A stretch of 64,000 nt of DNA from a phage. Numbering within the stretch: the stretch's first letter is position 1; every line of letters starts with the position of its first letter. The DNA is taken from sequence record PZ386971.1. One strand, written 5' to 3'. Positions 22,692 through 38,179 of this stretch are shown here, one piece after another. The notes beneath the pieces are model-generated. The model saw only the letters and a list, made by a program, of their open reading frames with translations. It ran no database searches and had not been told where the DNA came from. The position numbers and the translations under genes are program-made.

Positions 22692-23114
22692 ATGGCCGCC
22701 CTTGGATTGTTCGATTACCTGTCTGCTCTGAACAGCAGCAAAGAAAACCTTCTGCGGACTGATGACCCAGAAGTGTTGAAAGGATTCGACCCGTTTATGA
22801 CGCGGCGTGGTTTAGCTCAGAGCAAAGACACTCTAGTGACCGCTCAGCAGATGAACAAACTGCATGCTGTTACTCCATGGATGCAATGGTCATATGCCTT
22901 TCACACCATTCCGGCGCGGAAACGCTACGACAAATGGTCTAAGAAAGGTCCGATTGATCCTGACGTGAAGTTACTCTCCGAGTACTTCTACATCAGCATG
23001 GAGAAGGCATCCGAGTACGTCCGTTTCTTGCCGAAGGAAGTCCTGGCCGAAATACGCGAGAAGATGAGACGCACTGAGCTGAACGCCAAAGCGAAACCGC
23101 GCAAGGCTAAGTAG
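22692..23114 (+). CDS. 62: Clamp loader small subunit (T4 gp62-like)
   Basis: 140 aa; ARKRYDKWSK resembles T4 gp62 RGKRYGKWAK; follows gp44 gene. Confidence 0.7.
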   Translation: MAALGLFDYLSALNSSKENLLRTDDPEVLKGFDPFMTRRGLAQSKDTLVTAQQMNKLHAVTPWMQWSYAFHTIPARKRYDKWSKKGPIDPDVKLLSEYFYISMEKASEYVRFLPKEVLAEIREKMRRTELNAKAKPRKAK

Positions 23115-23143
23115 TTCAAACTATTGTGAAAGGAGAATGAGTC

Positions 23144-23608: not shown

Positions 23609-23624
23609 CTGGAGTCGCTAAATC

Positions 23625-24497
23625 ATGACAACTACATTTTCTAAGAACGTGAATCTGAATCTGGCTTTCGGTAATGCAAAGGGCGACGTCACATCGCCTG
23701 ACTTTGGTAAGATCCGCAATCAGGCGAAACTGGTGCTGGAAGAGACCCGCGAACTGCTGGAAGCGGTGTTCTTTGACCATGATGTGAAGGTGGAATTCAC
23801 TGCAACTCCACGAGTCCTGAAAGAACCTGCCGTTGTGGACATCAAAGGCATCATGCGCCAGATCATGGATGCCCAGGGCGACATCACAACAGTCAACGAC
23901 GGTTTGGCTCATATTGCTGGTTTCGACGGCGACGAATGCCTACAGCGCGTGTATGCGTCTAACATGAGCAAGTTCATTCGCAATGAAGGTGAAGTTGTGC
24001 CTGCACTGGATTACTACTACAACAAAGGCTTCCCACGCGAAAGTCTGCGCATCGAAGGGGAATTCCCTCAGGCGTGCATCAAAGTGGTAGACACCATCAC
24101 CGTCGACGGCAAAGAATACCCGGCTGGCAAGTTCCTGAAGAACATGGCAACCTTCAAAGAGCCTGACTTCTCTGATATGCTGACTGCCGAGCCTAAGCGC
24201 CAGATCACTGAAATCATTCTGACGGGTACGGCCATTCCAGGCCAGCTCGGCTCTAACGAACACGCTGGTGTTGCCTTCGCTCCGTTCGATTTTATTGACG
24301 AGATCATGGGATACACCAAGATGGGCTTCCAGGCGTTCTCTGGCGAAACAGTCGAGAGCTACATTCCCGTGTTTGTTTTCAATGAAGACAACTTCCCAAC
24401 TCTACCGTTGATCTGGGGTGAATGGAAAGCCAACGTCCGTATCTATGTGGCCAGCCCAGTGCAATCATCTATCACCCAACTGACCCGTATCGATTAA
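23625..24497 (+). CDS. Hypothetical protein (290 aa) with weak MazG/HisE-like all-alpha NTP-pyrophosphatase signature at N-terminus
   Basis: EETRELLEAV (EExxE) segment; the full EExxE...EExxD motif is not convincingly present. Confidence 0.45.
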   Translation: MTTTFSKNVNLNLAFGNAKGDVTSPDFGKIRNQAKLVLEETRELLEAVFFDHDVKVEFTATPRVLKEPAVVDIKGIMRQIMDAQGDITTVNDGLAHIAGFDGDECLQRVYASNMSKFIRNEGEVVPALDYYYNKGFPRESLRIEGEFPQACIKVVDTITVDGKEYPAGKFLKNMATFKEPDFSDMLTAEPKRQITEIILTGTAIPGQLGSNEHAGVAFAPFDFIDEIMGYTKMGFQAFSGETVESYIPVFVFNEDNFPTLPLIWGEWKANVRIYVASPVQSSITQLTRID

Positions 24498-24565
24498 GAT
24501 ATACGGTTATTCACTAAACAACAGAGGCTATAATGGCCTCTGTTTTCGTATTCTAAGAGGATACC

Positions 24566-25789
24566 ATGAAAGATAAACCATATGACATCCCATATTGCGG
24601 TGTCCGTGAAACCAAAATCAAATCAGCCCATCCTATGTTAAGTTCATTCCACCGTCAGCTGGCATATGAATGGATGAGGGATCGTTATGCGATACATGTC
24701 AAGAAGGACGTGCAATGCCTTCCAGCGCCATGGACGGATAATCCGGTATTACGCCAAGTCAAGTTTTGTAACGTGCGGAGAGAGCACGATAGACAGTCTC
24801 GAAATTTGATCAATAATATCATCCTCAATCAGGATCTCACGCTATCTGACAAAATGTTCAACTGTGTATTGTTCCGCATGTACAACATGTGGGAACCTAT
24901 ACAGGCTTTGGGTGGTCCATGGACGATCGAAGAATTCGGAAACATAAATCTTGAATGGTGTCGAAGTGTTCTTCAGGAATTCGAATCTAAAGGTGGCAAA
25001 GTTTTCACCAATGCGTTTAATACAGGCGGTCTGAAACAATGCCTGGCTTTCCCCGAACTAGTTGTCAACCACAAGGAGCAGCGCTTCGGTGGGATGATGG
25101 TGAATCTGATCTGTAAAGACGGTTCAACCCAGAACATGGATTACAAGGAAGCCAAGGCCATCGCTGAAGCAGAGCCGGACTTCTACACCATCGAAGGTTG
25201 GGAACCGTACATGCCAATGCGTGTCATCCGCTCCCTGAAGGCATTCGTCAACAAACACCCTCATTACTTTGATCGCCTCAGGGAATTTAGCCGTCCCGAC
25301 TCTGTTTACCAGGCGATGTATGACGACATTGAGGGGCTTGGACCATTCTTGGCATACCAGATTTGGGTTGATTTTACATACATCGATGAATATCCATTCA
25401 GTGAAAACCACTTCACTATCGCTGGTCCAGGTTGCCGTGCTGGTATCGATCTGTTATTTTTGGACAAGGACGGCATGACGCATGAAGAATGCATATTCTG
25501 GGTTCGTGATCATCAAGATCAATTGTTCGCTCAGTATGGGTATAAACGTAATGAATTTTGGTCGGCAGAAGAACCGGAAGATCGTTGCATGAATGTTATG
25601 CAGCTGGAGAACATGTTCTGTGAACTTCAGAAATATACCCGCTGTGTTGAGGCAGTGATGCGCGGGGAGAAACCTCGAGGAAAGGTGGGGTATGACGGGA
25701 ATGGTAGTGCGTATAAGCAACGTTGTGATGAAGTCGTGCTCAAACGTGGTTCCGTCAATTTGCTGGACCGTTTGAAGAAACCTGAATAA
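24566..25789 (+). CDS. Hypothetical protein (407 aa), orphan enzyme-like
   Basis: Long clean ORF with RBS; no recognisable P-loop, methyltransferase or ligase motif. Confidence 0.55.
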   Translation: MKDKPYDIPYCGVRETKIKSAHPMLSSFHRQLAYEWMRDRYAIHVKKDVQCLPAPWTDNPVLRQVKFCNVRREHDRQSRNLINNIILNQDLTLSDKMFNCVLFRMYNMWEPIQALGGPWTIEEFGNINLEWCRSVLQEFESKGGKVFTNAFNTGGLKQCLAFPELVVNHKEQRFGGMMVNLICKDGSTQNMDYKEAKAIAEAEPDFYTIEGWEPYMPMRVIRSLKAFVNKHPHYFDRLREFSRPDSVYQAMYDDIEGLGPFLAYQIWVDFTYIDEYPFSENHFTIAGPGCRAGIDLLFLDKDGMTHEECIFWVRDHQDQLFAQYGYKRNEFWSAEEPEDRCMNVMQLENMFCELQKYTRCVEAVMRGEKPRGKVGYDGNGSAYKQRCDEVVLKRGSVNLLDRLKKPE

Positions 25790-25903
25790 AGATTCCCTTT
25801 ACTTCGTTCTTCAATAACTCAATCCAGCGTATATTAACCTCACTTAAACGAAGCGCCCTGGCAAACGGGGCGCACATTTGAACTGAAACAGGAAGATTAC
25901 ATC

Positions 25904-27922
25904 ATGTCAGATTTTAAGCCCTTCGCAGTAGCTGTCAACAATAACGTGCTGGCCATGTCAGCAACTGGTCTGTTCATGACCAACATCGATAAAGATGCTC
26001 TGTGGGATCTGTATCTGTCTTCTTTCCCTGCTGGCACTAACCCGCTTTATCGTGAGCGTACCGAGCACGACTGCACCTGCTGTAAACAATTCATCCGTAA
26101 TATCGGCGGTGTGGTCACCATCGACTCCGACCTGAACGTGATCTCTATCTGGGATAACATTCAGCTGGGTAACGAATACGACGTTGTCGCTGCGGCGCTG
26201 TCAGCATATGTTAAGCAGCACGCAATCGTCGACGTGTACTTCAACGACACCAAGAAAGTTGGTGTTGAGTCGAATCACGAAATGAAAGACGGTATTGCCC
26301 GCACCTACAACCACTTCCACACCGACCTGCTGGGTAGCTATGTTCTGCGGGCAGATACCATCGCTTCTAAGAAGGGCGAAATCCGCCAGGCGATTGAAGT
26401 GTTTGAGCGCGGTCTGCGCGAACTGTCTCTGGAATCGGCTGAAATCGTTCTGGAATTGATTGACCAGAATTCTCTGTATCGCGGTGAAGAGCACAAAGCG
26501 GCAGTGCAGGCGTTCGTGGTGAACAAGACCCTGTACGAACAAACTGCAGAAGAGAAACGCGCTCTGTGGGCTTGGCGCACTGGCTACCGTGCAAACGGTC
26601 ATACCCCTCACGGCATTCGTAATACCGTGATTGGCTCTCTGCTGGTAGACCTCAATGAAGGCCGGGATTTGGAAACCGCCGTGAAGTCCTTTGAAGCCAA
26701 AGTCGCCCCGACGAACTACAAGCGCCCAACCGCGCTGGTCACGAAGTCGATGATTGAAAACGCGCAGAAAGAAGTCGAAGCGCTGGGTCTGACTGATTCA
26801 CTGGGTCGCCGTTATGCCGTGTATGACGATCTGACCATCAACAACGTTCTGTTCGCCGATCTGGCAGCTCAGAAGAAGATGGACCCGTTTGCTCAGCTGG
26901 CGTCTGAAGTGAAGACTCCGACCAAGTCCCTGGACAAGGTTGAAGAGATCACGATCGACGACTTCCTGGCCAACGTGTTGCCAAAGGCGCATTCCCTGGA
27001 AGTGCTGGTCGAAAACTCTCACATTGGCAACCTGATGTCCCTGATCGCTCCGGCTACCGCAGGCGCTCCTAACCTGTTCAAATGGAACAACGGTTTCAGC
27101 TGGTCATACAACGGTGAAGTGGCCGACTCCATCAAAGAGCGCGTGAAGACAGCAGGCGGCAACGTTGACAGCTTCCTCCGGGTGTCACTGGCTTGGCATA
27201 ACAACGACGACCTGGATCTGAGCATGAACGATCCTCTTCACAACCACGTATATTTTCGCAACCGTCGTTCGACAACTGGCGCAACTCTGGACATCGACAT
27301 GAACGGTATGGACGGCATTGACCCAAATCGCCGTCCGGTGGAGAACATCTTCTTCAGCGATGAACGCAAGCTACGTGACGGGAATTATGAGTTCTATGTC
27401 ACCAACTTCAACAAGCGTGAAACCTGTGACGTTGGTTTCGAAATCGAAGTCGAATACAAAGGCCAGACCAAGCGCTTCTCACACCCTGGCCTGGGTAACA
27501 AAGATCGCACGTTGGCTGTTGTGGTTCAGGTTCGCGCTGGTCAGGTGGTTGACATCAGTTCTACCCTGAAAGACGACGCTCGCTCTCAGGAAATCTGGGG
27601 CATCAAGACCTCCGTCTTCCAGAAGGTACAGCTGGTTCTGAACTCACCAAACCATTGGGACGGCGAGCAGACGGGCAACAAGCACGTGTTCTTCATCCTG
27701 GAAGGTTGTGCTAACCCTGTCGGCACCCGTGGTTTCTATAACGAATATCTGAAGCCGGAACTTGATAAACACCGCAAGGTTTTTGAAATGTTAGGTGGTA
27801 AGATTAAAGTACAGCCAAGCAATGAGCAGCTGTCCGGTCTGGGCTTCTCTACCACCCAACGCAACCACGTGTTCGTGAAGGTGAGCGGTTCGTTCAACCG
27901 CACTGTGAAAGTTGTGTTCTAA
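25904..27922 (+). CDS. Hypothetical large protein (672 aa)
   Basis: Clean ORF preceded by AGGAAGATTACATCATG; Cys cluster HDCTCCKQF near N-terminus; no recognisable catalytic motif. Confidence 0.6.
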   Translation: MSDFKPFAVAVNNNVLAMSATGLFMTNIDKDALWDLYLSSFPAGTNPLYRERTEHDCTCCKQFIRNIGGVVTIDSDLNVISIWDNIQLGNEYDVVAAALSAYVKQHAIVDVYFNDTKKVGVESNHEMKDGIARTYNHFHTDLLGSYVLRADTIASKKGEIRQAIEVFERGLRELSLESAEIVLELIDQNSLYRGEEHKAAVQAFVVNKTLYEQTAEEKRALWAWRTGYRANGHTPHGIRNTVIGSLLVDLNEGRDLETAVKSFEAKVAPTNYKRPTALVTKSMIENAQKEVEALGLTDSLGRRYAVYDDLTINNVLFADLAAQKKMDPFAQLASEVKTPTKSLDKVEEITIDDFLANVLPKAHSLEVLVENSHIGNLMSLIAPATAGAPNLFKWNNGFSWSYNGEVADSIKERVKTAGGNVDSFLRVSLAWHNNDDLDLSMNDPLHNHVYFRNRRSTTGATLDIDMNGMDGIDPNRRPVENIFFSDERKLRDGNYEFYVTNFNKRETCDVGFEIEVEYKGQTKRFSHPGLGNKDRTLAVVVQVRAGQVVDISSTLKDDARSQEIWGIKTSVFQKVQLVLNSPNHWDGEQTGNKHVFFILEGCANPVGTRGFYNEYLKPELDKHRKVFEMLGGKIKVQPSNEQLSGLGFSTTQRNHVFVKVSGSFNRTVKVVF

Positions 27923-27966
27923 ACCTGATTTGAAATTGTAACCCATTCATCATTGAGGATAGTAAA

Positions 27967-28338
27967 ATGTTTGATAAAGCAACCCGTATGAAACTGCGCT
28001 TCGAGTCTAACAAAGGCCTGTTGTCTGTTGAGCAGGTCTGGGACCTGAGCCTGACTGCCCTGAACGAAATGGCGAAAGGTCTGAGCCGTCAGGTGAAAGC
28101 AGCAGAAACCGATGAAGAAGATTTCATTGGTACCAAAAGCAACGTTGACTCCGAACTGCAGCTGCGCTTCGACGTTGTCAAGCACATCATCGGCGTTAAG
28201 CTGAAAGAACGTGACGACAGCAGAGACGCGGCAGAGCGTAAGGCGAACAACCAGATTATCCTGGAGCTGATCCAGCGTAAGAAACAGCAAGAGCTGGAAA
28301 GCAAATCTGTTGAAGAACTGGAAGCACTCCTGAAATAA
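27967..28338 (+). CDS. Hypothetical charged helical protein (123 aa)
   Basis: ORF with GAGGAT SD; followed by a terminator hairpin. Confidence 0.5.
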   Translation: MFDKATRMKLRFESNKGLLSVEQVWDLSLTALNEMAKGLSRQVKAAETDEEDFIGTKSNVDSELQLRFDVVKHIIGVKLKERDDSRDAAERKANNQIILELIQRKKQQELESKSVEELEALLK

Positions 28339-28361
28339 TCTGTCTGACCTCAGCCTGAGCA

Positions 28362-28388
28362 ACCCCGCCATGTGCGGGGTTTCTTTTG
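28362..28388 (+). terminator. Rho-independent terminator
   Basis: ccccgcCATGTgcgggg then TTTCTTTT. Confidence 0.55.
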
Positions 28389-28398
28389 GACAAAGAAT

Positions 28399-28773
28399 AT
28401 GAAACCTGTTATATGCGATTACTGTGGCCTCCCAGCCGAATTCGTCGGTGGTGATGTTCTCTACCCTCATCACCCTGACCTCCGCAATCTGAAGTTCTGG
28501 GTGTGCACTCCATGTGATGCCCGTGTCGGTTGCCATGCCCATGGCGACGGCAGACAACCTTTGGGAAGGATGGCGAATGCCGCTCTCCGTGCTGCTAAGC
28601 AAAAAGCCCATAGATCGTTTGACCCATTATGGAAAAGCGGAGAGAGGAGCAGGAGCGACGCTTACAGTTGGCTGGCGCATAAGCTGGGGATTAAGAAGCG
28701 CGATTGCCATATCGGCTTGTTCGATATCGACATGTGCCGTAAAGTAGTGGAGGTCTGTAAACAAATATCATAG
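28399..28773 (+). CDS. Zinc-ribbon protein (125 aa)
   Basis: CDYC...(n)...CTPCDARVGCHAH Cys/His cluster. Confidence 0.5.
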   Translation: MKPVICDYCGLPAEFVGGDVLYPHHPDLRNLKFWVCTPCDARVGCHAHGDGRQPLGRMANAALRAAKQKAHRSFDPLWKSGERSRSDAYSWLAHKLGIKKRDCHIGLFDIDMCRKVVEVCKQIS

Positions 28774-28781
28774 GAGAACAC

Positions 28782-29654
28782 ATGACAACTCGCACTGGCA
28801 TCAAACTCACTCCTGAAGTCCTGAAGTCACATATCGCTGAGGTGATTTACGAAGACCGCGAAGTCGGCGGTCACCGGGCTATCACTTGTCATTTCAAGAT
28901 GGATAACGGCTTCGTCGTTCACGGCACCAAGCCCAGCACATCCATAGACCCGGCCAACTTCGATGAAGCCCTGGGCAAAGAGATTTCCTACAATAACACC
29001 TTCGACCAGCTGTGGCAGCTGGAGGCGTACCGGGCGCTTGTTGAACAAGATCTGTTGGCCAAAGCCACGGAAACGGCAGAGATCCGGATCGATCAATACG
29101 CTGTTGAACGTAGCGCCCTCTGTCCGGCCTATCACCTCGGCTTCAATGTGATGATTCAGGAAGTGATGTTCAGAGCGGAAAATGGCGAGCGCTTCTTGGC
29201 GTCTTTCATTTGTGGGCCGGATGACATGGAACTTGTTGTTGAATCTCACAACGCCAAATCTCGTAAGGCTGTTAGTGATTTCCTGCGCGCCAACTCCAAA
29301 CTCGATCTCACTTGTTCGCCATTGGTTCTGCGCATCGCCAAGATTTGTCATGAAGCCAACCGCGCATACTGCAAGTCTATTGGTGACGACTCTCAACTGC
29401 CTTGGGAACAATCTCCGGCCTGGCAGCGTGAGAGCGCTTGCAAAGGTGTTATCTTCCATCTCACTGGTGATCGTAAGCCCAGCGAATCGCATGAGAGATG
29501 GATGGCGGAGAAGGAGTCTGAGGGATGGGTATATGGCCCAGTCAAAGACCCTCAGACCAAGCAACACCCTTGCATAGTTCCGTATGGAGAACTCCCGGTA
29601 CAACAACGCTCCAAAGATTATATTTTCAAATCCATTGTAGACTCCTTTAAATAA
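28782..29654 (+). CDS. Gp49-like N-terminal domain fused to a C-terminal RyR-domain
   Basis: N-terminus HRAITCHFKMDNGFVVHGT...DPANFDEALGKEISYNNTFDQLWQLEAYRAL; C-terminus HERWMAEKESEGWVYGPVKDPQTKQHPCIVPYGELP resembles the RyR repeat. Confidence 0.5.
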   Translation: MTTRTGIKLTPEVLKSHIAEVIYEDREVGGHRAITCHFKMDNGFVVHGTKPSTSIDPANFDEALGKEISYNNTFDQLWQLEAYRALVEQDLLAKATETAEIRIDQYAVERSALCPAYHLGFNVMIQEVMFRAENGERFLASFICGPDDMELVVESHNAKSRKAVSDFLRANSKLDLTCSPLVLRIAKICHEANRAYCKSIGDDSQLPWEQSPAWQRESACKGVIFHLTGDRKPSESHERWMAEKESEGWVYGPVKDPQTKQHPCIVPYGELPVQQRSKDYIFKSIVDSFK

Positions 29655-29690
29655 GCTCTGAATAATATTTCAACCTGTCAATAATATAAT

Positions 29691-29719
29691 GCCCGGTTAT
29701 ATTCAATCGGGCATTTTTA
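29691..29719 (+). terminator. Terminator-like hairpin after the RyR-domain gene
   Basis: gcccg-(12 nt loop)-cgggc followed by ATTTTTA. Confidence 0.4.
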
Positions 29720-29728
29720 TTATATTAA

Positions 29729-29759
29729 TTGGCATCAATACCGCCTGTCGTAATATAAT
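29729..29759 (+). promoter_or_regulatory. Sigma70-like promoter (TTGGCA ... TATAAT) upstream of the vWA gene
   Basis: TTGGCA at 29729 and TAATATAAT at about 29751-29759 (16-19 bp spacer depending on hexamer choice). Confidence 0.4.
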
Positions 29760-29804
29760 AGTCCCATGTTAAAATAGTTAGGAAATATAACTCACGAGAG
29801 CCTG

Positions 29805-29981
29805 ATGACCGACAACAAATTAAAACGTGTCGGACTTGATTGTCTTGACAATTCATTCCGCCCCAGTGATGTTCTGGTCGCCCAAATGGAAAACAACCGG
29901 GATTTCATTGAAACTATGCTGGAGAACGCCGACGCGAACTCCAAACACTCCAAAGCCCAAAAAGGTCAAAACGATGATTGA
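29805..29981 (+). CDS. Possible small ORF (58 aa) overlapping the vWA start
   Basis: Not in the track (under 60 aa); ATG with GAGAG upstream; reads MTDNKLKRVGLDCLDNSFRP...; hand-indexed coordinates. Confidence 0.25.
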   Translation: MTDNKLKRVGLDCLDNSFRPSDVLVAQMENNRDFIETMLENADANSKHSKAQKGQNDD

Positions 29982-32175
29982 ATCATTAACATTTAAGAAT
30001 GCGGTTGCGACCGTTGCGCCGTCTAACCATGTAATCGTTGTGGATATCTCCGGTTCCATGTATCGTTCACTTCCAGAAGTCCGTAAGCATCTGAAGGAGA
30101 ACCTGCCTTCCCTGGTGAAACCCGAAGATACTGTGAGCATCCTTTACTTTTCATCTCGCGGTGATTTCGGAACGGTATTTGCCGGACGCCAGATCGGTGT
30201 CGCATCTGACCTGAGCGAGCTGAATAAGCTGATCGATCGCTTCCTGCAACCGTCCGGATGTACTGGCTTTGTTGAGCCGTTGAAACTGGCGATGGACACT
30301 GCTCGTAGCCTGAAGAAGCCTGGCTATGTCAACAACCTGGCGTTCATGACTGACGGGTATGACAACTGCTGGCGTACCAACGAAATCTTACTGGTTGCTG
30401 AGACCCTGCCATTTGCTTTCGATAACATTACTTTCATCGAATACGGCTGGCACTGTAACCGCGAACTGCTGGCGCAGATGGCCGAACGCTCCGGTGCGAC
30501 CCACGTGTTTGCCGAAGGTCAGACCGAATACCAGACCGAACTAGAAAACGTGCTGAAGTCATCAGTGCCGAAGGTGAAAGTTGATGTCCCAGTCATCTAC
30601 ACCCATGCCATCTACGTCGAAAACGGTGTGGCAACAGTACTGGCGGTGCAGGACGATGACTCTCACCCGGTCGGCTATGTGAGCATCCCTGAGAGCGTCA
30701 CCAAGCTGTGGGTTGTAAACCCTAACATGATCGACCAGCTTGATGCGCTGGCGGACATCCAGGCGGCATACGTGCTGGCGTTCTACGGCGTACACATCAT
30801 GGACGCAGACCTGGTATGGGCTGCGCTGAAGAAGACGGGCGACGTTCGCTTCATCAAACAGTACAGCAACTGCTTTACCAAGCAGGACTACTCCAACATC
30901 AAGAACGATCTGGTACAGGCGATTGTTGACGACCAGCTGCGCGGCGTTGACGGTATTGACTATGACCTGGTTCCGGCTGAAGATGCGACGACCGTCGTTG
31001 ACGTGCTGACGTATCTGGCTGAAGCTGGCGTGTCTGTTGCCACCAAACATCCTATGTTCTCCTACAAGAGCATTGGTCGCGGTACTGTGCAGAAAGCGGA
31101 CGATACCGAAGACAAACTGGCAGAACAGATCGCGAATGCTCAGTCCAAAGAAGAGCGTAAAGCCCTGGCTCTCAAGCTGGCTGAGCACGAAGAATGGACG
31201 CCGTCGTTTGAACCTGCCAACGATCTGGGCGTTATCTCAATCAGCGATCTGGTCTACAACTCTGAGCGCCCGAACATCAGTGTGCGCACTATTCAGCATG
31301 GTACTGTGACTGTCCCTGAGTTCGCACAGAAGAAGTTTGGTCTGCCTGAAGAACTGGATACTTTCCAGTGGCGCAACTACACCATCGTCAAAGATGGTAT
31401 CATCAACGTGAAGACCCTGCCGTTCAAGGCTGATATCGAAGTTGTACAGAAGCTGATCGAAATGGGCGTCCACGTGTTTGGTGGACCGGAAGTGTTTGTC
31501 CTGAACCTGGAAAGCGTACCGCTGGTCAACCGCGCCATGGTCAAGAACATCAGTGCTGCTCAGTTCTTTGCGGATAATGTCCGTTTGGAAGCCCTGAAAG
31601 GCAAGCAGAAGGTGCTGAAGTTCTATCGAGACGCCCTGGTTGGTAAAGGTAACGCCAAAGGCCTGGCAGTACAGTACGGCGCTGAGGCGGCCGAGTTCCT
31701 GTCCTCCTACGGCATCCGCGATTACGGCTTCTCACCGAAGACTGAGACCAAAGAGTCTACCGACTTCTACATGAGCCGGGAGCTGAACGTGAAGATCGCT
31801 GGCGCTTCATCTCTACCGTCTATCGCAGCGGTACAGAAGAAGATTGCCGAGAACAAGAAACTCAATGCTGGTGACTTGTTCATCGCCAATGCTCTGAAAG
31901 AGTACGAAGCATTCGTGAAGTCTCCTATGATCACTGCCGTGCCTGAAGCCTTACAGAAACAGCTGATCGAAAACTGGATCGACGCTGCTGCCAAGGCGAC
32001 CATCACCGAAGTCCGTGCCCTGAACAAGACACTGTCTAAAGTGGTGTATGGTATCGTTGCTGGCCACGGCTGGTTCACCGACCTCGACCTGGAAGAGTCC
32101 ACCATGGAAGTTGAAGTGGATGGCGTGAAGTACAAGGTCACTGCCGAACTGACAGAGAAAGAAATCAAAATCTAA
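29974..32175 (+). CDS. von Willebrand factor A (vWA) domain protein, 733 aa
   Basis: VIVVDISGSM (MIDAS DxSxS), later FMTDGYDN; N-terminal 49 aa of the track ORF are low-complexity and likely untranslated, start ATG 29974 with AAAGG SD. Confidence 0.7.
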   Translation: MIESLTFKNAVATVAPSNHVIVVDISGSMYRSLPEVRKHLKENLPSLVKPEDTVSILYFSSRGDFGTVFAGRQIGVASDLSELNKLIDRFLQPSGCTGFVEPLKLAMDTARSLKKPGYVNNLAFMTDGYDNCWRTNEILLVAETLPFAFDNITFIEYGWHCNRELLAQMAERSGATHVFAEGQTEYQTELENVLKSSVPKVKVDVPVIYTHAIYVENGVATVLAVQDDDSHPVGYVSIPESVTKLWVVNPNMIDQLDALADIQAAYVLAFYGVHIMDADLVWAALKKTGDVRFIKQYSNCFTKQDYSNIKNDLVQAIVDDQLRGVDGIDYDLVPAEDATTVVDVLTYLAEAGVSVATKHPMFSYKSIGRGTVQKADDTEDKLAEQIANAQSKEERKALALKLAEHEEWTPSFEPANDLGVISISDLVYNSERPNISVRTIQHGTVTVPEFAQKKFGLPEELDTFQWRNYTIVKDGIINVKTLPFKADIEVVQKLIEMGVHVFGGPEVFVLNLESVPLVNRAMVKNISAAQFFADNVRLEALKGKQKVLKFYRDALVGKGNAKGLAVQYGAEAAEFLSSYGIRDYGFSPKTETKESTDFYMSRELNVKIAGASSLPSIAAVQKKIAENKKLNAGDLFIANALKEYEAFVKSPMITAVPEALQKQLIENWIDAAAKATITEVRALNKTLSKVVYGIVAGHGWFTDLDLEESTMEVEVDGVKYKVTAELTEKEIKI

Positions 32176-32181
32176 TCCAAC

Positions 32182-32205
32182 GGGCGGGGCAACCCGCCTT
32201 TCTTT
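32182..32205 (+). terminator. Rho-independent terminator with GNRA loop
   Basis: ggcgggGCAAcccgcc then TTTCTTT. Confidence 0.55.
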
Positions 32206-32217
32206 GGGAGAAGTAGC

Positions 32218-32541
32218 ATGAGCAGTAAACCAACATATGTTGAAGTCATGCGTCATCTGGCTCAGTACGCCACTGACAATCTGAACTTGGATCTGTGGCG
32301 TGACGATGACAAGCGCAAATTGCTGGACGACGTGGCATCTCAGAACGAGGACGCCCTAGACAAGCTGGCTGGCCTCCGCACCAAGAAAGACCTCGGCGGT
32401 GATGAACTGGACGCTATCGAAATTGTAATGGACCTCGAAGAAGAGTTTCAGGTCGAAATCGACGATGGTTGGCTGGGCAGTAAAGGTGATGACCCGACCA
32501 TGGGTGAACTCGCTGAACTCGTGGTTGCCCTGCGCAAATAA
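32218..32541 (+). CDS. Acyl carrier protein homolog with Ser-to-Glu at the phosphopantetheine site
   Basis: DLGGDELDAIEIVMDLEEEFQVEIDD aligns with E. coli ACP [26 protein letters not shown]; the conserved DSL Ser is Glu (DEL). Confidence 0.7.
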   Translation: MSSKPTYVEVMRHLAQYATDNLNLDLWRDDDKRKLLDDVASQNEDALDKLAGLRTKKDLGGDELDAIEIVMDLEEEFQVEIDDGWLGSKGDDPTMGELAELVVALRK

Positions 32542-32547
32542 CAGAAG

Positions 32548-32572
32548 TCCCCAACAAACGTTGGGGATTTTT
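32548..32572 (+). terminator. Terminator hairpin tccccaacAAAgttgggga + T-run (copy 1)
   Basis: Identical 26-bp element recurs at 32904. Confidence 0.55.
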
Positions 32573-32583
32573 ACTTTTAGGGG

Positions 32584-32612
32584 TTTACTTCTATAATGTA
32601 AATGCGTATTAT
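32584..32612 (+). promoter_or_regulatory. Early promoter (-35 TTTACT, 17 bp, -10 TATTAT)
   Basis: gggGTTTACTtctataatgtaaatgcgTATTAT; same -35 family as cassette A. Confidence 0.45.
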
Positions 32613-32661
32613 TGAATTCATAGAGCGGGGCGTTCCTGTTCATTGAAAGAAGGTATACATT

Positions 32662-32886
32662 ATGTCTGCTATATCATGTGTTGTTGATCTCACCCCATTT
32701 TGCCTGAACAATATTGCTAACCCTAAATTGGTCTTGTTTAAGGATCCCTCTAATTTCTGCTGGCTGGCAAGTTGTGATACCAACAACGGGCGTCGTGCTG
32801 TTTGGGAGTTTCCCGCAACTGATGAAGGCAGAATTTCTGCTATAAGAAAATTAGAACTAGAAAATTCAAGCCGAGAAATTAAATAG
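32662..32886 (+). CDS. Hypothetical small protein (74 aa)
   Basis: ORF flanked on both sides by duplicated terminator-promoter cassettes. Confidence 0.4.
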   Translation: MSAISCVVDLTPFCLNNIANPKLVLFKDPSNFCWLASCDTNNGRRAVWEFPATDEGRISAIRKLELENSSREIK

Positions 32887-32903
32887 GCATAACTTTTATT
32901 AAA

Positions 32904-32928
32904 TCCCCAACAAACGTTGGGGATTTTT
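32904..32928 (+). terminator. Terminator hairpin tccccaacAAAgttgggga + T-run (copy 2)
   Basis: Exact repeat of the element at 32548. Confidence 0.55.
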
Positions 32929-32940
32929 AACTTTTAGGGG

Positions 32941-32969
32941 TTTACTTCCTTTAAGGAATGTCCTATTAT
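32941..32969 (+). promoter_or_regulatory. Early promoter (-35 TTTACT, 17 bp, -10 TATTAT)
   Basis: GTTTACTtcctttaaggaatgtccTATTAT. Confidence 0.45.
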
Positions 32970-33020
32970 TCAATAACTGGCGAACGATGGGTTCACCGGG
33001 TTGAAAGGTAAGATTATATC

Positions 33021-33260
33021 ATGAAGAACAAAATGGTCGAAACTTCAGTAGAGATTGATCGCAATTGGGGATTGCTCCGCGCTAAAGGGTTCCGTCGTGT
33101 GTATGCGACCAAAGAAGTCTACGCACAGCGCCGTGACGTTATCATCAGCAAGAAAGGCAAAGAGTGGGTTGCTGAAGAAGTTGATGTCGAGACAGGCATC
33201 GTAGGAAAGGTAAAGGCCAAGGCCGTGATCCTCTTCGCTCTTCTGAAGCACATCAGTTAA
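33021..33260 (+). CDS. Hypothetical small protein (79 aa)
   Basis: ATG preceded by AGGTAAGATTATATC. Confidence 0.4.
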   Translation: MKNKMVETSVEIDRNWGLLRAKGFRRVYATKEVYAQRRDVIISKKGKEWVAEEVDVETGIVGKVKAKAVILFALLKHIS

Positions 33261-33273
33261 TTCTATAACTTTG

Positions 33274-33300
33274 GGCGGGGTATGATTACCCCGTCTATTT
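33274..33300 (+). terminator. GC hairpin GGCGGGGTATGATTACCCCGTC + TATTTG (type B, copy 1)
   Basis: 31-bp element identical to the one at 33833. Confidence 0.5.
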
Positions 33301-33319
33301 GAAATGCAGGAACTATACC

Positions 33320-33826
33320 ATGACCGATCAACAAATTCAAGATTTATTTTACCTCGTCCATGATAAGTCCCACATCATGCGCCCCGGTACTGTTTCCCCT
33401 GCCGTCCGTGATCTGGTGCAAGAATTGCGCGAACCACAGACGACCACACTTTATCGCGGGTTGCCTAAAGAGGACGTTGCGCGTTTAGAGATGATGTTTG
33501 AACGAGGCGACATGTTCCAGACATGGGATTCTTGCCTTAGCTTCAGTGAACTGAAGCATGTGGCCAAAAAATTTTCTAAATCGTACGGAACCCAAGCTGT
33601 TGCCCGCATTTGTTACAAACATCGAAACAGACTCCCGGAGGGGCTTAATGTCTATGGTTCTCTAGAAAAATTTGTGAACAAAGGCGATGAATCAGAAATG
33701 GATATGCTGGACTTGGCGTCCATGGAGAAAGAATGGATATTCTGCCAGCCTCGCGTCATACCAGTTTCAAGAAAAATGGCAACAGACGGCACGATGGTTT
33801 TTACCGTATCACTTGTTACCCTATAA
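33320..33826 (+). CDS. Hypothetical protein (168 aa)
   Basis: ATG preceded by CAGGAACTATACC. Confidence 0.5.
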   Translation: MTDQQIQDLFYLVHDKSHIMRPGTVSPAVRDLVQELREPQTTTLYRGLPKEDVARLEMMFERGDMFQTWDSCLSFSELKHVAKKFSKSYGTQAVARICYKHRNRLPEGLNVYGSLEKFVNKGDESEMDMLDLASMEKEWIFCQPRVIPVSRKMATDGTMVFTVSLVTL

Positions 33827-33832
33827 ACCCAC

Positions 33833-33859
33833 GGCGGGGTATGATTACCCCGTCTATTT
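33833..33859 (+). terminator. GC hairpin GGCGGGGTATGATTACCCCGTC + TATTTG (type B, copy 2)
   Basis: Exact repeat of 33274 element. Confidence 0.5.
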
Positions 33860-33878
33860 GAAACCAAGAGACTATATC

Positions 33879-34256
33879 ATGAAAAAGTTAATCCTCGCTG
33901 TTGCCCTGCTGGGCGCTTCCTTTGCTGCTGTTTCCGCCCCTCCTGTCATCACCGGAGTGTCTACCAACGGTGTTTATGCTTTCAAGGCGTATGGCCAAGA
34001 CCTCGTTCTGTATAAGAACGGGAAGATGATTGAGCGCTGCGTATCAGACGACGTGAATCGTGGGATCGACAATCAGGGTAGCCCATACGTCCTGGACATC
34101 TATTCCTGCTCCAACGGGACGAAGTCCTTTGGCGTCAAGACCTTTGGCAACGTCGCCGACGGTGGCTGGGGCTTCATGTTCGAAACCCGCAACCACCACC
34201 CGGTCAAGACCATGCAAGAAGAGTTCTTGATCTCTGTCGGGGGTGGAACATTATGA
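33879..34256 (+). CDS. Secreted small protein with signal peptide (125 aa)
   Basis: MKKLILAVALLGASFAAVSA signal-peptide-like N-terminus; two Cys. Confidence 0.5.
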   Translation: MKKLILAVALLGASFAAVSAPPVITGVSTNGVYAFKAYGQDLVLYKNGKMIERCVSDDVNRGIDNQGSPYVLDIYSCSNGTKSFGVKTFGNVADGGWGFMFETRNHHPVKTMQEEFLISVGGGTL

Positions 34257-34540
34257 CGCCTGAACAACGCCGTTCCGTGAAAGTCATGGTGAAAGGTAAG
34301 ACTCAGCTGAGTTATGTCCAGTCTGCCAATGTTGTCCGCCTGATGGAAGTCAAGAACGACATCGACAACTCCCGATTCCAATCGGCACTCTACGGGCTTC
34401 TCGAGTTCGTTCTTCGCCAGGCTGATCTTGGTCCTGTCTATACTCTTGATGATCTGACCAAGCTGTTGAACACGGGCGGGGAAGGTTTCGACACTGCTCG
34501 TATCCTGATTGACGGTGGACCTAAAGAAGACGAGGTATAA
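34253..34540 (+). CDS. Hypothetical protein (95 aa)
   Basis: ORF overlapping the upstream stop (ATGA). Confidence 0.45.
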   Translation: MTPEQRRSVKVMVKGKTQLSYVQSANVVRLMEVKNDIDNSRFQSALYGLLEFVLRQADLGPVYTLDDLTKLLNTGGEGFDTARILIDGGPKEDEV

Positions 34541-34732
34541 TTTGGATAAAGAATTGGTTTGGGAAATTGTGAAGGGTGTCCTAGTAATAATCGCGGTGGT
34601 TTTCATCTTGGGTGGAAACTTCTTCTATTGGTTATTCCGATCCGACCAGAAACGTCGCGAACGCAAGGAGAAAGAGAGAAAGGATCGATGGATGCGCTAA
34701 CTAAGGGATAACCCTATATCCCGAGGTGTGTC

Positions 34733-35182
34733 ATGTTCCTTACATCCTTTATTGACTGGTTGAACATCATTAACGGCCTGAGGATCCCTGTTGGGAACCT
34801 CGGGCTTTCTCGTTCTTCTATGCCGCAAATCGATGCCGACAAACAAGAAGATTTTCACAAATATCTTGAAGACAACGGCGTGTCCATAGATGCTGTGCAA
34901 GTGCCCATCAAAATGCTTCGTCTCACCCAGAACGAAATCAACAAGATGAAGGTCTGGAAGATCATGAAGCAGATCAGAAATAAGAAACCTATGGGTCGAG
35001 TTTGGGTGTCTTCTGACAATTACGTTGTTGACGGTTCTCACCGATTTGTCGCTGCGTTGAACATGGACGGCAAACAGCGCATGAAGGTCTACAAAGTTGA
35101 TTTGCCAGCGATGGAATTTGTTAAACTCGCTAAACAGTTTCAGGGTGTGCGATACAGAACGGTCAGCGATACCCGTTTCTGA
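34733..35182 (+). CDS. ParB/Srx-like nuclease-domain protein
   Basis: 149 aa; LRLTQNEI ... VVDGSHRFVAA resembles the ParB N-terminal domain (LxxTQ ... DGxHR). Confidence 0.5.
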   Translation: MFLTSFIDWLNIINGLRIPVGNLGLSRSSMPQIDADKQEDFHKYLEDNGVSIDAVQVPIKMLRLTQNEINKMKVWKIMKQIRNKKPMGRVWVSSDNYVVDGSHRFVAALNMDGKQRMKVYKVDLPAMEFVKLAKQFQGVRYRTVSDTRF

Positions 35183-35261
35183 ATACGATAGTTTATTGAA
35201 ACCCTTTACTCATCATGGTGAGCCGCCTATCATTTCATCCAATGAAATAAGGAGAATCACC

Positions 35262-35948
35262 ATGAAACGTTTAATCCTCGGGGTCGTGCTGTCTGGTCTG
35301 GCATTACCCGCCGCTGCTAAGCTGAACTCCACAGGTGATAAACTGTGGTCCGACCTTTCCTATTGTGCTGGGTTCTCCCAGGCGGTTGCCATCGACAAGT
35401 CTGGTTCCATAGAGAACTTCGCTGAACTCTGGAACACAGGCAACGTCTCCACTGCTGTCGTCAATGCCGGAATTGAGTTCAACCGTTACAAACAGGGAGC
35501 CTATAACCTCAAGGGCTACCTCAATGACGACGAATTTAACCGTGGAGGCATGGAGGCTGGCGATTTGATCATGACTGGGCGTATGGGCACCCAAGGCCGA
35601 ATGACCGTAAGACAGTGCCGTTCGCTCCCTTCTCCGGCATTACAGAAGGGTGTGCAGGTTGGTCGCCGCCACCTGAACCTCATCAACGATGGCAACCAGT
35701 GCGTCAAAGTATTCGAATACAGCGCTACGCAGACCTCTGATCGCGTCCTGAAGAAGGAATGGCGCACCCGCGCTCTTGGTCTCAGAGCCTGGCTGGTTGA
35801 GAACGATTATTACTTTGAAGACAGGGTTCAGAACGGTCTGAAAGACCTGGCCACGAATCTGAGCGTGAACCTTGATGATCCTCGCATGTCGCGCGAACTC
35901 CAGCAGACTCGTGTTGACTGCGACAATATGATGAAGGAGAACGAGTGA
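35262..35948 (+). CDS. Secreted or periplasmic protein with signal peptide (228 aa)
   Basis: MKRLILGVVLSGLALPAAA signal-peptide-like N-terminus; several Cys. Confidence 0.5.
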   Translation: MKRLILGVVLSGLALPAAAKLNSTGDKLWSDLSYCAGFSQAVAIDKSGSIENFAELWNTGNVSTAVVNAGIEFNRYKQGAYNLKGYLNDDEFNRGGMEAGDLIMTGRMGTQGRMTVRQCRSLPSPALQKGVQVGRRHLNLINDGNQCVKVFEYSATQTSDRVLKKEWRTRALGLRAWLVENDYYFEDRVQNGLKDLATNLSVNLDDPRMSRELQQTRVDCDNMMKENE

Positions 35949-36274
35949 TGAAATGTAAAATCTTGCTCTTGTTGGTACTGATAGCCGGATGTGTAAACGC
36001 CGCGCCACCGTCCAAACTGAACACATGTGTGGCATGGATGGAGACGTATCAGCAGTTCCACCCAGATGACAAAGACACATCTATCCTCCTGTCTGACTTT
36101 GAGGGAGAGCTGAAGCGCCTTGATCTGTTCAGTGTTGATCAGATAGAGAATGCGCTGGATCTTCCCATGATGCTGACTGCGGCTGATAACAGTCCACAAA
36201 CGAAAAAAGACCTGATGTATTGTCGGGGGATTGCCCAGGACTTTGTCGGATTTCAAAATAAAGTTTCGGGTTAA
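35945..36274 (+). CDS. Putative lipoprotein (109 aa)
   Basis: MMKCKILLLLVLIAGC: signal peptide with lipobox-like LIAGC. Confidence 0.5.
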   Translation: MMKCKILLLLVLIAGCVNAAPPSKLNTCVAWMETYQQFHPDDKDTSILLSDFEGELKRLDLFSVDQIENALDLPMMLTAADNSPQTKKDLMYCRGIAQDFVGFQNKVSG

Positions 36275-36313
36275 AATTTAGCCCTACATTGTGAACTGAA
36301 GGAATACACTGTG

Positions 36314-37180
36314 ATGCTCCTGACCAAAACAATCGCTGCGGCGATTATCGAAAAGAATAAGGCTTTTGCCCCCAACGCAGCCAAAGTTATGTTGGTACAC
36401 GAAGACGCTCGCGTGATCTTCGCCGAGAAGTTCGAGATGGGCGCGAAGTTCTGGTATGCCGACAACTTACGTGAGAGCAAACTTCAGGGTATCATCCACA
36501 AACTGACTCTGGTCGCCAAGCGTAATGACCAGGGTGACTGGGTCGGCGTTTCTGACTTCAGTACGAAGATCACCCCAAAGGCTCCGCTTTCTCGTCAAGA
36601 GCGCATTCTGGAAGCCCAGGAAAAGCTGCGTGCGGCTCGGAGTACCACAAAGGCGAAGCCAGATGCAAGCCCTGTCATCAAGCCAGCGGTTGTTCCTAAG
36701 TCCAAATACCTCCCGCCCGTGAGTCAAAAGTCTGTGGAGCAATTGGTTGAGAAGCGCAAGGGTGACGTTGTGATGAAGTCTGACTCTTCAGTGGAGTCGT
36801 TCAAGCCGGATCCAGCAGAAGTACAGGCGCTGGCAGAAAAGGTAAAGAATTCACAATTCATTTCCCTGCGCGAACTTGAACCGCCTACTCGCCGTCGTAT
36901 CGCCAACGAGCTGTTTGTGTCGTTCAGGTCGGATGGCAAGATCGTCCTGTGCAAAGCCCTGCGCGATGCAATCCCTTGGACAACTCTGAACATGATGGTC
37001 ACTCGCGACTTCAAGCGTTTTGGTATCATGCAAGGCAAGGACTACAACGTCAACCAGAGCGGGACTTATGTTAATCGCGCCATGTGTGACAAACTGACCT
37101 TCCCAGAAGACACCGGAACGATCCGTGTCGTTCTGAATTGGGATGACAAGCTGAACATGTATGTTGGCGATTTCCAATAA
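36314..37180 (+). CDS. Hypothetical protein (288 aa)
   Basis: ATG 36314 with AAGGAA SD; track start is the GTG 3 nt upstream. Confidence 0.5.
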   Translation: MLLTKTIAAAIIEKNKAFAPNAAKVMLVHEDARVIFAEKFEMGAKFWYADNLRESKLQGIIHKLTLVAKRNDQGDWVGVSDFSTKITPKAPLSRQERILEAQEKLRAARSTTKAKPDASPVIKPAVVPKSKYLPPVSQKSVEQLVEKRKGDVVMKSDSSVESFKPDPAEVQALAEKVKNSQFISLRELEPPTRRRIANELFVSFRSDGKIVLCKALRDAIPWTTLNMMVTRDFKRFGIMQGKDYNVNQSGTYVNRAMCDKLTFPEDTGTIRVVLNWDDKLNMYVGDFQ

Positions 37181-37236
37181 TCAATAACCTCGGGCGGCTT
37201 ATCATAAAGCTGCCCTTTCATTTGAGAGACTATATC

Positions 37237-37899
37237 ATGGAAAAACTTTATTCTATTATCGTCGGTCCTGATCCTGACGGATTATTCTTCGCCTCGTTGT
37301 CTTATATTGCCCACGCCCGTATCGGTAGCTATTACGCATATTGCACACGTGGCCACGACGGTTCCAATATCCTCCATTATAGCCGCCTGAACGATTTCCT
37401 GGCACTTCAACCAGAAGATGTTGTGCTGGCGCGTCGCGTGTTCATCGACTTCAACGCGATGCACAACAACGAAATCGACGCTCGCTACCATGCCATGCGT
37501 TCTATGGACGGGGGAGATTGCATTTATCGTATCGACCATTTTAGTGAGTTTACCGAATGTATTGATTGGTTTATCTCTGATAAAGTGATGGGTGAAAGAA
37601 TCGTCACAACTCCGTGGGCACATGCGGAACAACTTCGTGTGTCTACCGATGCGTACAAAGAAGTCGACAATCTGTGCAACAAGTTCCGCATCTCGGTGAC
37701 CTGTAATCAAGACCTGGGCGAAGAGATACAATGGACAGCTGAGTCTCCTCATTTCAGTGGCCTGGTGATGACGGCCGAAACCCGTTCCCGTGCTGTTGTC
37801 CAGTTAGTACTCTGGGCGTTCTACCAGCGCACCCCGTTCTCGTACATGGGGCAGAAAGAGATTGATGAACTCCTGAAGTCTCACGCGGTGGAGGTGTAA
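37237..37899 (+). CDS. Hypothetical protein (220 aa)
   Basis: ATG preceded by GAGAGACTATATC. Confidence 0.5.
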   Translation: MEKLYSIIVGPDPDGLFFASLSYIAHARIGSYYAYCTRGHDGSNILHYSRLNDFLALQPEDVVLARRVFIDFNAMHNNEIDARYHAMRSMDGGDCIYRIDHFSEFTECIDWFISDKVMGERIVTTPWAHAEQLRVSTDAYKEVDNLCNKFRISVTCNQDLGEEIQWTAESPHFSGLVMTAETRSRAVVQLVLWAFYQRTPFSYMGQKEIDELLKSHAVEV

Positions 37900-37900
37900 T

Positions 37901-38179
37901 ATGGCTGGCGTATGGTGTGATGTCTTGCTGGTTCGTTACAGCGTAAATGGGTGTGTCCAAGTGCGTTCCGCCTTCTATCCAGTACCGTTCTCTTCCGGTG
38001 GCCTGACGGTTCAGCGAGTTCTCGATATTGAGGCAGAACTGAACAAAAAGTCTTTTGGTGTACAAGTCCTGGGGTACGATCTTCTGAATGAAATGATGGT
38101 TGAAGAAGACAAAGTTGAGACTGTCATTGGTCGTCAGGAGATGGAATCGTTAATCTCCAAATCGGAGGTCAAATCATGA
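37901..38179 (+). CDS. Hypothetical small protein (92 aa)
   Basis: ORF with GGAGGTG SD. Confidence 0.4.
   Translation: MAGVWCDVLLVRYSVNGCVQVRSAFYPVPFSSGGLTVQRVLDIEAELNKKSFGVQVLGYDLLNEMMVEEDKVETVIGRQEMESLISKSEVKS

Follow-up and report, generated by a model that had tools for sequence, protein, structure and literature searches.

The DNA analysed here, a stretch of 64,000 nucleotides (nt) from sequence record PZ386971.1 (hereafter the window), comes from an Ackermannviridae (ViI-like) phage that is most closely related to Escherichia phage ZQ1, AV101 and Shigella phage MK-13. We studied a short intergenic element with a GC-rich hairpin that occurs on both sides of a single gene, and we refer to the two copies as E1 and E2. 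All features of this locus lie on the + strand. The order is as follows: an open reading frame (ORF) of 79 amino acids (aa) at 33021-33260 (ORF79; phrog_804, function unknown, conserved family-wide), E1, an optional cassette gene of 168 aa at 33320-33826 that is a candidate Alt/Mod-like RNA polymerase ADP-ribosyltransferase (ART), E2, and a 125-aa gene at 33879-34256 (phrog_5474).

The core of the element is the 31-mer GGCGGGGTATGATTACCCCGTCTATTTGAAA, which a search of the window found in exactly two places, 33274-33304 and 33833-33863. There were no further matches with up to three mismatches and none in 100 shuffles of the window, the expected number being 0. An earlier note on this DNA had reported such an identical 31-bp element just past an ORF stop in each case, and both points hold: E1 begins 13 nt past the stop of ORF79 (33258-33260) and E2 begins 6 nt past the stop of the 168-aa gene (33824-33826). 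The distance to the next ATG, which had been put at about 20 nt, was 15 nt from the end of the 31-mer at both copies (ATG at 33320 and 33879). The likeness between the copies runs on to 50 nt with 88% identity, through the next ATG (repeat family D3).

Each copy can be divided into three parts. At E1 a conserved box, TTAATTCTATAAC (33257-33269), overlaps the stop of ORF79 and contains TATAAC. It is followed by the hairpin GGCGGGGTA-TGAT-TACCCCGTC (33274-33295; nine pairs including one G·U), whose loop contains the -10-like hexamer TATGAT (33281-33286), and by the leader with its ribosome-binding module, TATTTGAAATGCAGGAACTATACCATG (33296-33322), which is shared with other genes. At E2 a CTATAAA box (33821-33827) provides with its TAA the stop of the 168-aa gene, the hairpin (33833-33854) is identical to that of E1 in the window and differs in relatives, and the leader with the ribosome-binding module of the next gene reads TATTTGAAACCAAGAGACTATATCATG (33855-33881). 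The hairpins have 9-10 pairs and stabilities of -17 to -21 kcal/mol (-15 to -21 kcal/mol for the stem GGCGGGG..CCCCGTC), and the leader behind them is predicted to be unstructured. Rfam gave no match at the hairpins (20500-38000 scanned, E<=1).

A third copy lies between the clamp and clamp-loader genes. The related hairpin that the earlier note had placed at 21647 was confirmed with a covariance model that was built from E1/E2 orthologues only and recovered 21634-21675 with 31.2 bits (E=1.4e-4). In this cassette, which spans from the stop at 21615-21617 to the clamp-loader ATG, a perfect extended -10 element, TGCTATAAT (21634-21642, + strand), precedes the hairpin (GGGCGGGG CGTT CCCCGCC, followed by TATTTGAAAT; 21645-21668, + strand). 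By the covariance model E1, E2 and the clamp junction are the three significant copies of this type in the 64 kb.

Exchange of genes at the slot behind E1

The gene directly behind E1 differs between relatives. In the window it is the 168-aa gene, which matches phrog_832 'RNA polymerase ADP-ribosylase' with E=5.8e-15 and has the same label in the RefSeq record of MK-13; no sequence match was found in Pfam, NCBIfam or PDB. From the PHROG match and the RefSeq label we take it as a candidate Alt-like ART. The combination of ART and E2 was observed in the window, MK-13, ZQ1 and the loci L025, L031 and L033, and L028 has a divergent ART allele and no E2 hairpin. In LIMEstone1, SFP10, L027 and L034-L036 the slot holds denV with no second hairpin, in L030 and L032 it holds a 92-aa gene, and in L023 and L024 (phage Marshall) it is empty. 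Both the ART and the denV state are present in both subfamilies. As denV was found neither in the window nor in the complete genome of MK-13, we regard denV and ART as alternatives. Among the loci compared, E2 was found only alongside ART.

The alignment breakpoints between relatives fall at the element. The empty slots are the clearest case: L023 and L024 have a single hybrid element whose left flank is that of E1 and whose right flank is that of E2 (...CTATAACTTTG-GGCGGGG...TATTTGAAA-CCAAGAGACTATATCATGAAAAAG), and in relatives without the cassette the 125-aa gene stands directly behind this single hybrid element. This is exactly the product that is expected from recombination between E1 and E2. 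The cassette also appears to have moved between subfamilies. The ART gene of L033 (positions 1800-2306 of a kuttervirus-like IMG/VR contig of 161,502 bp) is 94.9% identical to that of the window at the nucleotide level compared to 80.4% for the adjacent ORF79, which indicates a recent transfer of the ART cassette between kuttervirus-like and Aglimvirinae phages. For other kuttervirus-like ART alleles the identity to the window is lower, at 79% and 63%.

The E2 hairpin itself varies. MK-13 has CCCCGCCCATTTG at E2, L033 has a replaced loop, and GCCCATTTG is found at E2 in MK-13 and ZQ1, whereas E2 of the window has the E1-type GTCTATTTG. Because the relatives differ in this way, the exact identity over 31 bp is best explained by gene conversion, by which E2 would have been made identical to E1 in the lineage of the window. 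In ZQ1, L025 and L031 the whole E2 hairpin is flipped such that the central octamer TATGATTA becomes TAATCATA and the arms are unchanged (inverted E2 at about 4330-4360 of L001, which is ZQ1, 2313-2334 of L025, about 2312-2335 of L031 and 3114-3133 of L172). We read this inversion as a flip-flop of a near-perfect palindrome, and it shows that the orientation of the loop is non-essential at E2. Taken across these relatives, the comparison shows the element in the role of a conserved recombination handle at a hypervariable slot, where the two exact copies mark a hotspot of recombination, a point that the earlier note had missed.

Conservation of the hairpins

A search with the 71 nt around E1 matched 245 Ackermannviridae records. 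For a closer comparison 14 orthologous loci were fetched with ORF79 as an anchor, to which LIMEstone1, MK-13 and SFP10 were added. In these orthologues the hairpin together with TATTTGAAA is identical to the window at 28-31 of 31 positions (90-100%). The sequence TTCTATAA is identical at 8 of 8 positions in the 14 loci, and the 5 nt between it and the 31-mer vary freely. For scale, the third codon positions of ORF79 are 54-64% identical between the window and Kuttervirus. The conservation of E1 spans at least five lineages, namely three named genera, kuttervirus-like contigs and one Serratia phage. To place the element outside the family we used a 20-nt core of E1, as a scan of viral contigs with CTATAA-N12-13-TATGATTA was too unspecific (at least 120 mostly unrelated stretches). 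In IMG/VR the core matches only Ackermannviridae contigs of about 150-160 kb (15 stretches), and in 596 Gb of bacterial genomes we found one match, probably by chance. On this ground we rejected a host-derived or repetitive extragenic palindrome (REP)-like repeat.

We then counted base pairs across the 17 alignable E1/E2 sequences, a set to which the count is limited and for which the shuffle control was uninformative. Of 153 cells 99.3% were paired and one was broken. Five of the nine pairs vary, and the variant is always G·U or U·G when read on the + strand (it would be A·C on the other strand); double changes were not observed. Taipeivirus contributes one more U·G pair to the stem. These changes are few. 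Since almost all of them preserve the pairing as G·U and they are strand-asymmetric, they favour a structure in the RNA (or in the + strand).

Across genera, MAFFT and RNAalifold put non-homologous stems out of register, and the support from other genera is based on per-sequence folds. At the clamp junction these folds gave a perfect hairpin of differing sequence in the same place in five groups: Aglimvirinae, Kuttervirus with Taipeivirus, Kuttervirus phage 38, Serratia 2050H1 and Erwinia phiEa2809. In all five the hairpin is trailed by (T)TTTGA, and in all but Erwinia phiEa2809 a -10-like hexamer (TGCTATAAT, TGCTTTAAT, TATTAT or TATAAT) lies about 5 nt upstream. Erwinia phiEa2809 has TATAAT inside the loop of the hairpin. 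Two Vibrio phages have retained the hairpin at the clamp junction but not its flanking motifs. From these folds we consider the clamp junction to be stronger structural evidence than the counts at E1/E2.

Candidate promoter and terminator signals and their interpretation

A cassette type with a similar layout, the promoter-early stem-loop (PeSL), is known from the T4-like phages RB49/phi1, PST/T4 and nt-1/KVP40 (Arbiol et al. 2010, PMC2839356; Comeau et al. 2014, PMC4122927). It consists of an upstream stop, an AT-rich region, a sigma-70-like promoter, a polyG/polyC stem-loop with G-T pairs, a Shine-Dalgarno (SD) sequence and the ATG (PMC2839356, PMC4122927). The stem-loop takes one of five positions, among them between the promoter boxes, overlapping the -35 or the -10, and just downstream of the -10 (PMC2839356). 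For the PeSLs of RB49/phi1 it was shown that the stem-loop terminates and that the cassette promotes transcription (PMC2839356). Flanking copies recombine, whereby ORFs are excised as mini-circles and one chimeric element is left (PMC2839356).

E1, E2 and the clamp junction resemble this type in several respects. All three occupy the span from a stop to the next ATG, and their stem-loop is formed by a G-run and a C-run with G-T pairs and may overlap a -10 or follow it directly. Direct repeats flank optional ORFs (E1 and E2 around the ART gene, the repeat D2 around the neighbouring orf74), cassette genes have been replaced between close relatives, and the element coincides with insertions, deletions and replacements, phages without the ORF having one chimeric element in its place (L023 and L024). 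If the loop TATGAT acted as a -10, E1 would correspond to the PeSL subclass in which the stem-loop overlaps the -10. There are also differences. The host family is Ackermannviridae and not T4-like proper, the E-type element is without a convincing -35 and occurs in two to three close copies per genome compared to dozens of PeSLs in RB49, and E1 is conserved at one fixed, orthologous position across at least five lineages instead of being one of dozens of dispersed copies. Promoter and terminator activity and mini-circles have been demonstrated for RB49/phi1, and for the Ackermannviridae element such activity is proposed. The ART cassette further resembles the morons of lambdoid phages (PMC2839356) as a single optional gene with its own regulatory signals, but in the window the flanking element in addition provides shared homology.

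We consider it probable, though by no means secure, that the element is a composite intergenic cassette of a PeSL-like kind, attenuator and promoter in one, which also serves as a recombination handle. It would be composed of an AT-rich box at the upstream stop, a + strand RNA hairpin of a G-run and a C-run, and a leader with the ribosome site up to the ATG. For transcripts from an upstream early promoter the hairpin would act as a leaky terminator or attenuator and protect the 3' end, and a weak sigma-70-type promoter within the cassette would re-initiate transcription for the downstream gene. This promoter would be one of two: TG-n-TATAAT immediately 5' of the hairpin (the arrangement at the clamp-loader gene), or TTAATT-18-TATGAT, whose -10 lies in the loop (the arrangement at E1). 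The cassette sequence offers the homology by which the gene behind it is inserted, replaced or deleted. Two copies are present because the resident E1 is followed by an ART gene that carries a copy of its own at the 3' end (E2), and gene conversion would then have made E2 identical to E1 in the lineage of the window. The recombination role was seen in the comparison of relatives; the promoter and terminator activities we infer.

The signals for transcription differ between the sites. The earlier note had described a TATAA(T/C/A) box 5-6 nt upstream of each hairpin. Such a box is indeed present at three hairpins (TATAAC at 33264, TATAAA at 33822 and TATAAT at 21637), where it lies 4-5 nt 5' of GGCGGGG or GGGCGGGG, but it is not conserved outside the lineage. 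Position 6 of the hexamer at E1 and E2 is C, A or T across the orthologues, and in Taipeivirus and Serratia phage IME250 the box reads TCAATAAC (AATAAC). An A at position 2 combined with a T at position 6, as required of a -10, is found only at the clamp junction, where the perfect extended -10 has no -35 and is conserved in other genera as TGCTTTAAT, TATTAT or TATAAT. Every E1 orthologue has the loop hexamer TATGAT unchanged, with TTAATT or TTAAAA 17-18 nt upstream; at E1 of the window, with TTAATT as a possible -35, TTAATT-18-TATGAT agrees with the consensus at 8 of 12 positions. TATGAT is at least as good a -10 candidate as the TATAA box and may be the real -10. The proposal that the hairpin is both a partial terminator and the 5' end of the next transcript fits the logic of the PeSLs and the stable, conserved + strand hairpins. 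It also agrees with the annotation of Klebsiella phage Magnus, in which a 'terminator' coincides with the clamp-junction hairpin and TTTT. Since the next ribosome site lies within 25 nt, the arrangement of the genes calls for a leaky site.

Several observations weigh against such a cassette. The hairpins narrowly missed the canonical terminator prediction, which the earlier note had named as a check: a scan for at least 5 Ts in an 8-nt tail does not list 33274, 33833 or 21647, which have 4 of 8, and does list the neighbouring terminators at 32182 and 32901. A sigma-70 scan put neither promoter register at E1 or E2 above the threshold, and this includes TTAATT-18-TATGAT, in which TTAATT matches TTGACA at 3 of 6 positions only. 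TATAAC and TATAAA are without the critical final T, and for this reason and because of TCAATAAC in other genera the TATAA box is a doubtful -10 at E1 and E2. We found no 5' or 3' RNA ends in the literature on start sites, transcriptomes and stem-loops of Ackermannviridae, and the literature searched gave no support for the attenuator between genes 45 and 44 of T4 to which the clamp junction had been likened. The one-sided changes in the stem are few (six keep the pairing and one breaks it) and of modest statistical weight, with no double compensatory change in E1/E2, and the sequence conservation of E1 could come from recombinational homogenisation and not from function. Finally, the E-type family is small, with three significant copies in the 64 kb and about five loosely similar cassettes in a whole genome.

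A serious alternative, though in our view an unlikely one, is a pure stabiliser at the 5' end or in the 5' untranslated region (UTR). Transcription would start from TATAAN, the mRNA would begin at the base of the hairpin and no termination would be involved; the hairpin would shield the message from RNase E and RppH and keep the ribosome site free. The 5' UTR hairpins of the ompA type are such 5'-terminal stabilising stem-loops. With TATAAN as the -10 the element would resemble them, with a hairpin at the predicted 5' end or a few nt from it and an unstructured ribosome site after it. A -10 that ends 4-5 nt before GGCGGGG would put the start about 7 nt downstream, at the first bases of the stem, and this geometry is found at 21637, 33264 and 33822 and similarly at 55543. 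That TGCTATAAT / TGCTTTAAT is conserved between subfamilies and in Serratia 2050H1 at the clamp-loader junction argues in the same direction, as do the tails that fail the terminator test and the leader that is predicted to be unstructured. Hairpins at 25853 and 32623 (the latter decayed) lie downstream of -10-like boxes and are thus not efficient terminators. In contrast to the ompA type, however, the -10 is poor at E1 and E2, given the absent last T, the variation between C, A and T and the form TCAATAAC in Taipeivirus and IME250. Moreover all enterobacterial genera have retained a run of 3-4 Ts right behind the stem, which a stabiliser would not need (though the run also belongs to the TTTGAA leader). 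Such a stabiliser is compatible with the PeSL-like cassette.

The remaining explanations we consider less likely than this. We know of no MotA or AsiA in ViI-like phages, and it is a long shot that the E hairpin with its invariant TATGAT loop and the conserved TTC(T/A)ATAAC box represents an undefined non-early promoter class of these phages or an RNA operator for the joint control of the clamp loader and the host-takeover slot, and in either case actively mobilises ART/denV cassettes between subfamilies. Improbable, too, is an operator in the narrower sense, where a translational repressor of the RegA type or an unknown protein would recognise the hairpin with its invariant loop plus UAUUUGAAAU, and the clamp loader and the slot genes would thereby be regulated together. 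At least five lineages share an unchanged sequence of the E1 loop UGAU and of the flanking TATTTGAAAT, a RegA homologue is encoded at 23144-23608 just downstream of the clamp-loader genes, and gene 44 is a classic RegA target in T4 and RB69 (PMC3014915). The RegA sites of T4 and RB69, however, are unstructured, A+U-rich and close to the AUG and not GC hairpins (PMC3014915). The element was kept although the E2 loop is flipped (ZQ1, L025 and L031) or replaced (L033), and the clamp-loader hairpins differ in loop and stem between genera, so that the structure and not the sequence would be recognised. Still less to be expected is that the element is an ordinary rho-independent terminator of high efficiency, although some annotations of related genomes label it as a terminator of this kind. 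The stable GC-rich stem right past the stop and the short T run after it are in line with an intrinsic terminator, as are the features on the clamp-junction hairpin of Magnus and at or beside E1 in KWBSE43-6 and LIMEstone1. But the T tract is short and interrupted (TATTTGAA), with its 4 of 8 Ts, and the terminator feature of LIMEstone1 (L002, 1546-1572) lies 3' of the hairpin (1520-1541) and not on it. The downstream gene follows 25 nt past the stem with no canonical promoter between and would be silenced by efficient termination. The least probable explanation is a site at the level of the DNA, i.e. a palindrome that a dedicated recombinase or homing enzyme would recognise in order to mobilise the cassette. 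It would agree with the coincidence of the breakpoints of several independent cassette exchanges with the element, with the complete inversion of the E2 hairpin in three phages and with the abundance of homing endonucleases in these genomes (PMC3296691), of which the ORF at 5017-6801 is a likely example. No recombinase or endonuclease gene travels with the cassette, though, which consists of ART and E2 only. The strand-asymmetric G·U substitutions are as for RNA and not for duplex DNA, and homologous recombination over 31-50 bp is enough in T4-like phages, as has been argued for PeSLs (PMC2839356).

Related cassettes and other signals in the window

By listing all intergenic regions of the window we found seven PeSL-type units, each with a terminator hairpin, TTTACT-17-TATACT/TATAAT/TATTAT, CATAAGCA... 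and TTGAAA-N-AGGAACTATATCATG. They are located at 4505-4635, 13987-14089, 25790-25903, 32542-32661, 32887-33020, 48334-48439 and 62097-62202, and their promoter consensus (TTTACT-17-TAYWAT) is that reported for the T4/PST PeSLs. Two of them bracket orf74 (32662-32886) with a 55-nt direct repeat (D2; 76% identity) that comprises a terminator tail and TTTACT-17-TATTAT. The left copy lies at 32563-32617 and the right copy at 32920-32974, both on the + strand. The gene orf74 is optional and missing from L023, phage Marshall (L024) and LIMEstone1. In its leader, 10 nt past the -10 TATTAT of the PeSL-type promoter, lies the sequence at 32623-32650 (+ strand) that had been taken for a degenerate copy of the element. 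It has the 12-nt run GCGGGGCGTTCC in common with the hairpin at 21647, but its stem is broken and the E1/E2 covariance model did not recover it at E<=10.

The gap between the tail sheath and tail tube genes (4202-6882) contains an insertion of about 2.7 kb relative to MK-13 with two small ORFs and a 594-aa ORF on the minus strand (5017-6801; DUF7487, weak match to a DUF559/Vsr-like endonuclease). It is probably a mobile insertion of the homing-endonuclease type, with the PeSL-type cassette at 4505. The covariance model gave a weak match at 4568 that is not significant (E=0.86) and in which TTCAATAAC of a PeSL-type promoter spacer was aligned to the E1 box. Upstream of the sliding-clamp gene, a divergent intergenic region of 364 nt contains a 19-nt tandem repeat, TTAATAAAGATTATTATCT, at 20769-20815 (2.5 copies, 96%), which may be a regulator-binding or origin-like array.

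Many genes share the leader that follows E1 and E2. The pattern TTGAA(A/C)-N-AGGAACTATATCATG has 13 matches with up to three mismatches compared to 1.36 expected, all on the + strand. The earlier note had included CTATTTGAAA in the hairpin element; it is the 5' end of this common ribosome-site leader and lies outside the hairpin proper, and because the leader is common to many genes it is not hairpin-specific. The translation-initiation region AGGAACTATATCATG is nearly identical in about 11 genes (4624, 13286, 14078, 33308, 33867, 37225, 48428, 48726, 55606, 62191 and 62442). As the spacer between SD and AUG it may be an operator or may merely have been homogenised by cassette recombination. 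GC hairpins also adjoin the common leader at 37192, 25853 and 32182. The first is a peripheral member with TCAATAAC-ctc-GGGCGGCTT..AAGCTGCCC followed by TTTCATTTGAGAGACTATATCATG (37192-37215, + strand). The second is a peripheral hairpin GCGCCC..GGGGCGC (25853-25873, + strand) that lies downstream of the -10-like TATATT and is followed by ACATTTGAAC and a ribosome site.

At 24520-24544 the hairpin AACAGAGGC-TATAATG-GCCTCTGTT has a perfect TATAAT in its loop and is followed by TTTCGTATTC upstream of the gene at 24566, a design that is also found at the clamp junction of Erwinia phage phiEa2809 (L019). Upstream of gp003 in MK-13 (L157, 1744-1804) a stop is followed by TTCTATAAC, a hairpin CCCGTTC...GAACGGG and a ribosome site, and with this pairing the TTC(T/A)ATAAC box recurs with an unrelated hairpin.

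We rejected a reading of the boxes as late promoters, since they are CTATAAC, CTATAAA and CTATAAT and late genes bear CTAAATA and not the T4-type TATAAATA. The window has 8 copies of the motif (A)CTAAATA(C/T) on the + strand (2215, 6850, 10391, 15477, 18676, 46994, 47583 and 52815) and none on the - strand. Most of them lie 20-60 nt 5' of starts, among others those of the tail sheath, tail tube and uvsW genes. For the complete genome of MK-13 we counted 14 and 4. Most of these copies are 5' of start codons and few within coding sequence; several lie upstream of late genes, some of these on the minus strand. CTAAATA looks like the late promoter of Ackermannviridae, with a TAAATA core and the first two bases unlike T4 TATAAATA. 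According to papers on ViI-like phages, neither the late promoter nor the early and middle control signals had been identified.

PeSL-type cassettes in Ackermannviridae are described neither in the papers that a full-text search for PeSLs listed, none of which deals with an Ackermannviridae phage as judged by title, nor in the genome papers of the family that we searched. The PeSL-like cassette is thus apparently undescribed for this family, and the cassette type as such is already known. The regulatory signals of Ackermannviridae are largely undefined, and these phages are under development against Salmonella, E. coli O157, Shigella, Klebsiella and Dickeya. Should cassettes of the PeSL type be at work in them, modular gene shuffling would reach beyond the T4-like phages. 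It would also explain a slot that alternates between a host-takeover enzyme, the candidate RNA polymerase ART, and the DNA-repair enzyme denV, and for phage engineering it would provide short, concrete sequences as candidate insulators or promoters together with safe insertion points.

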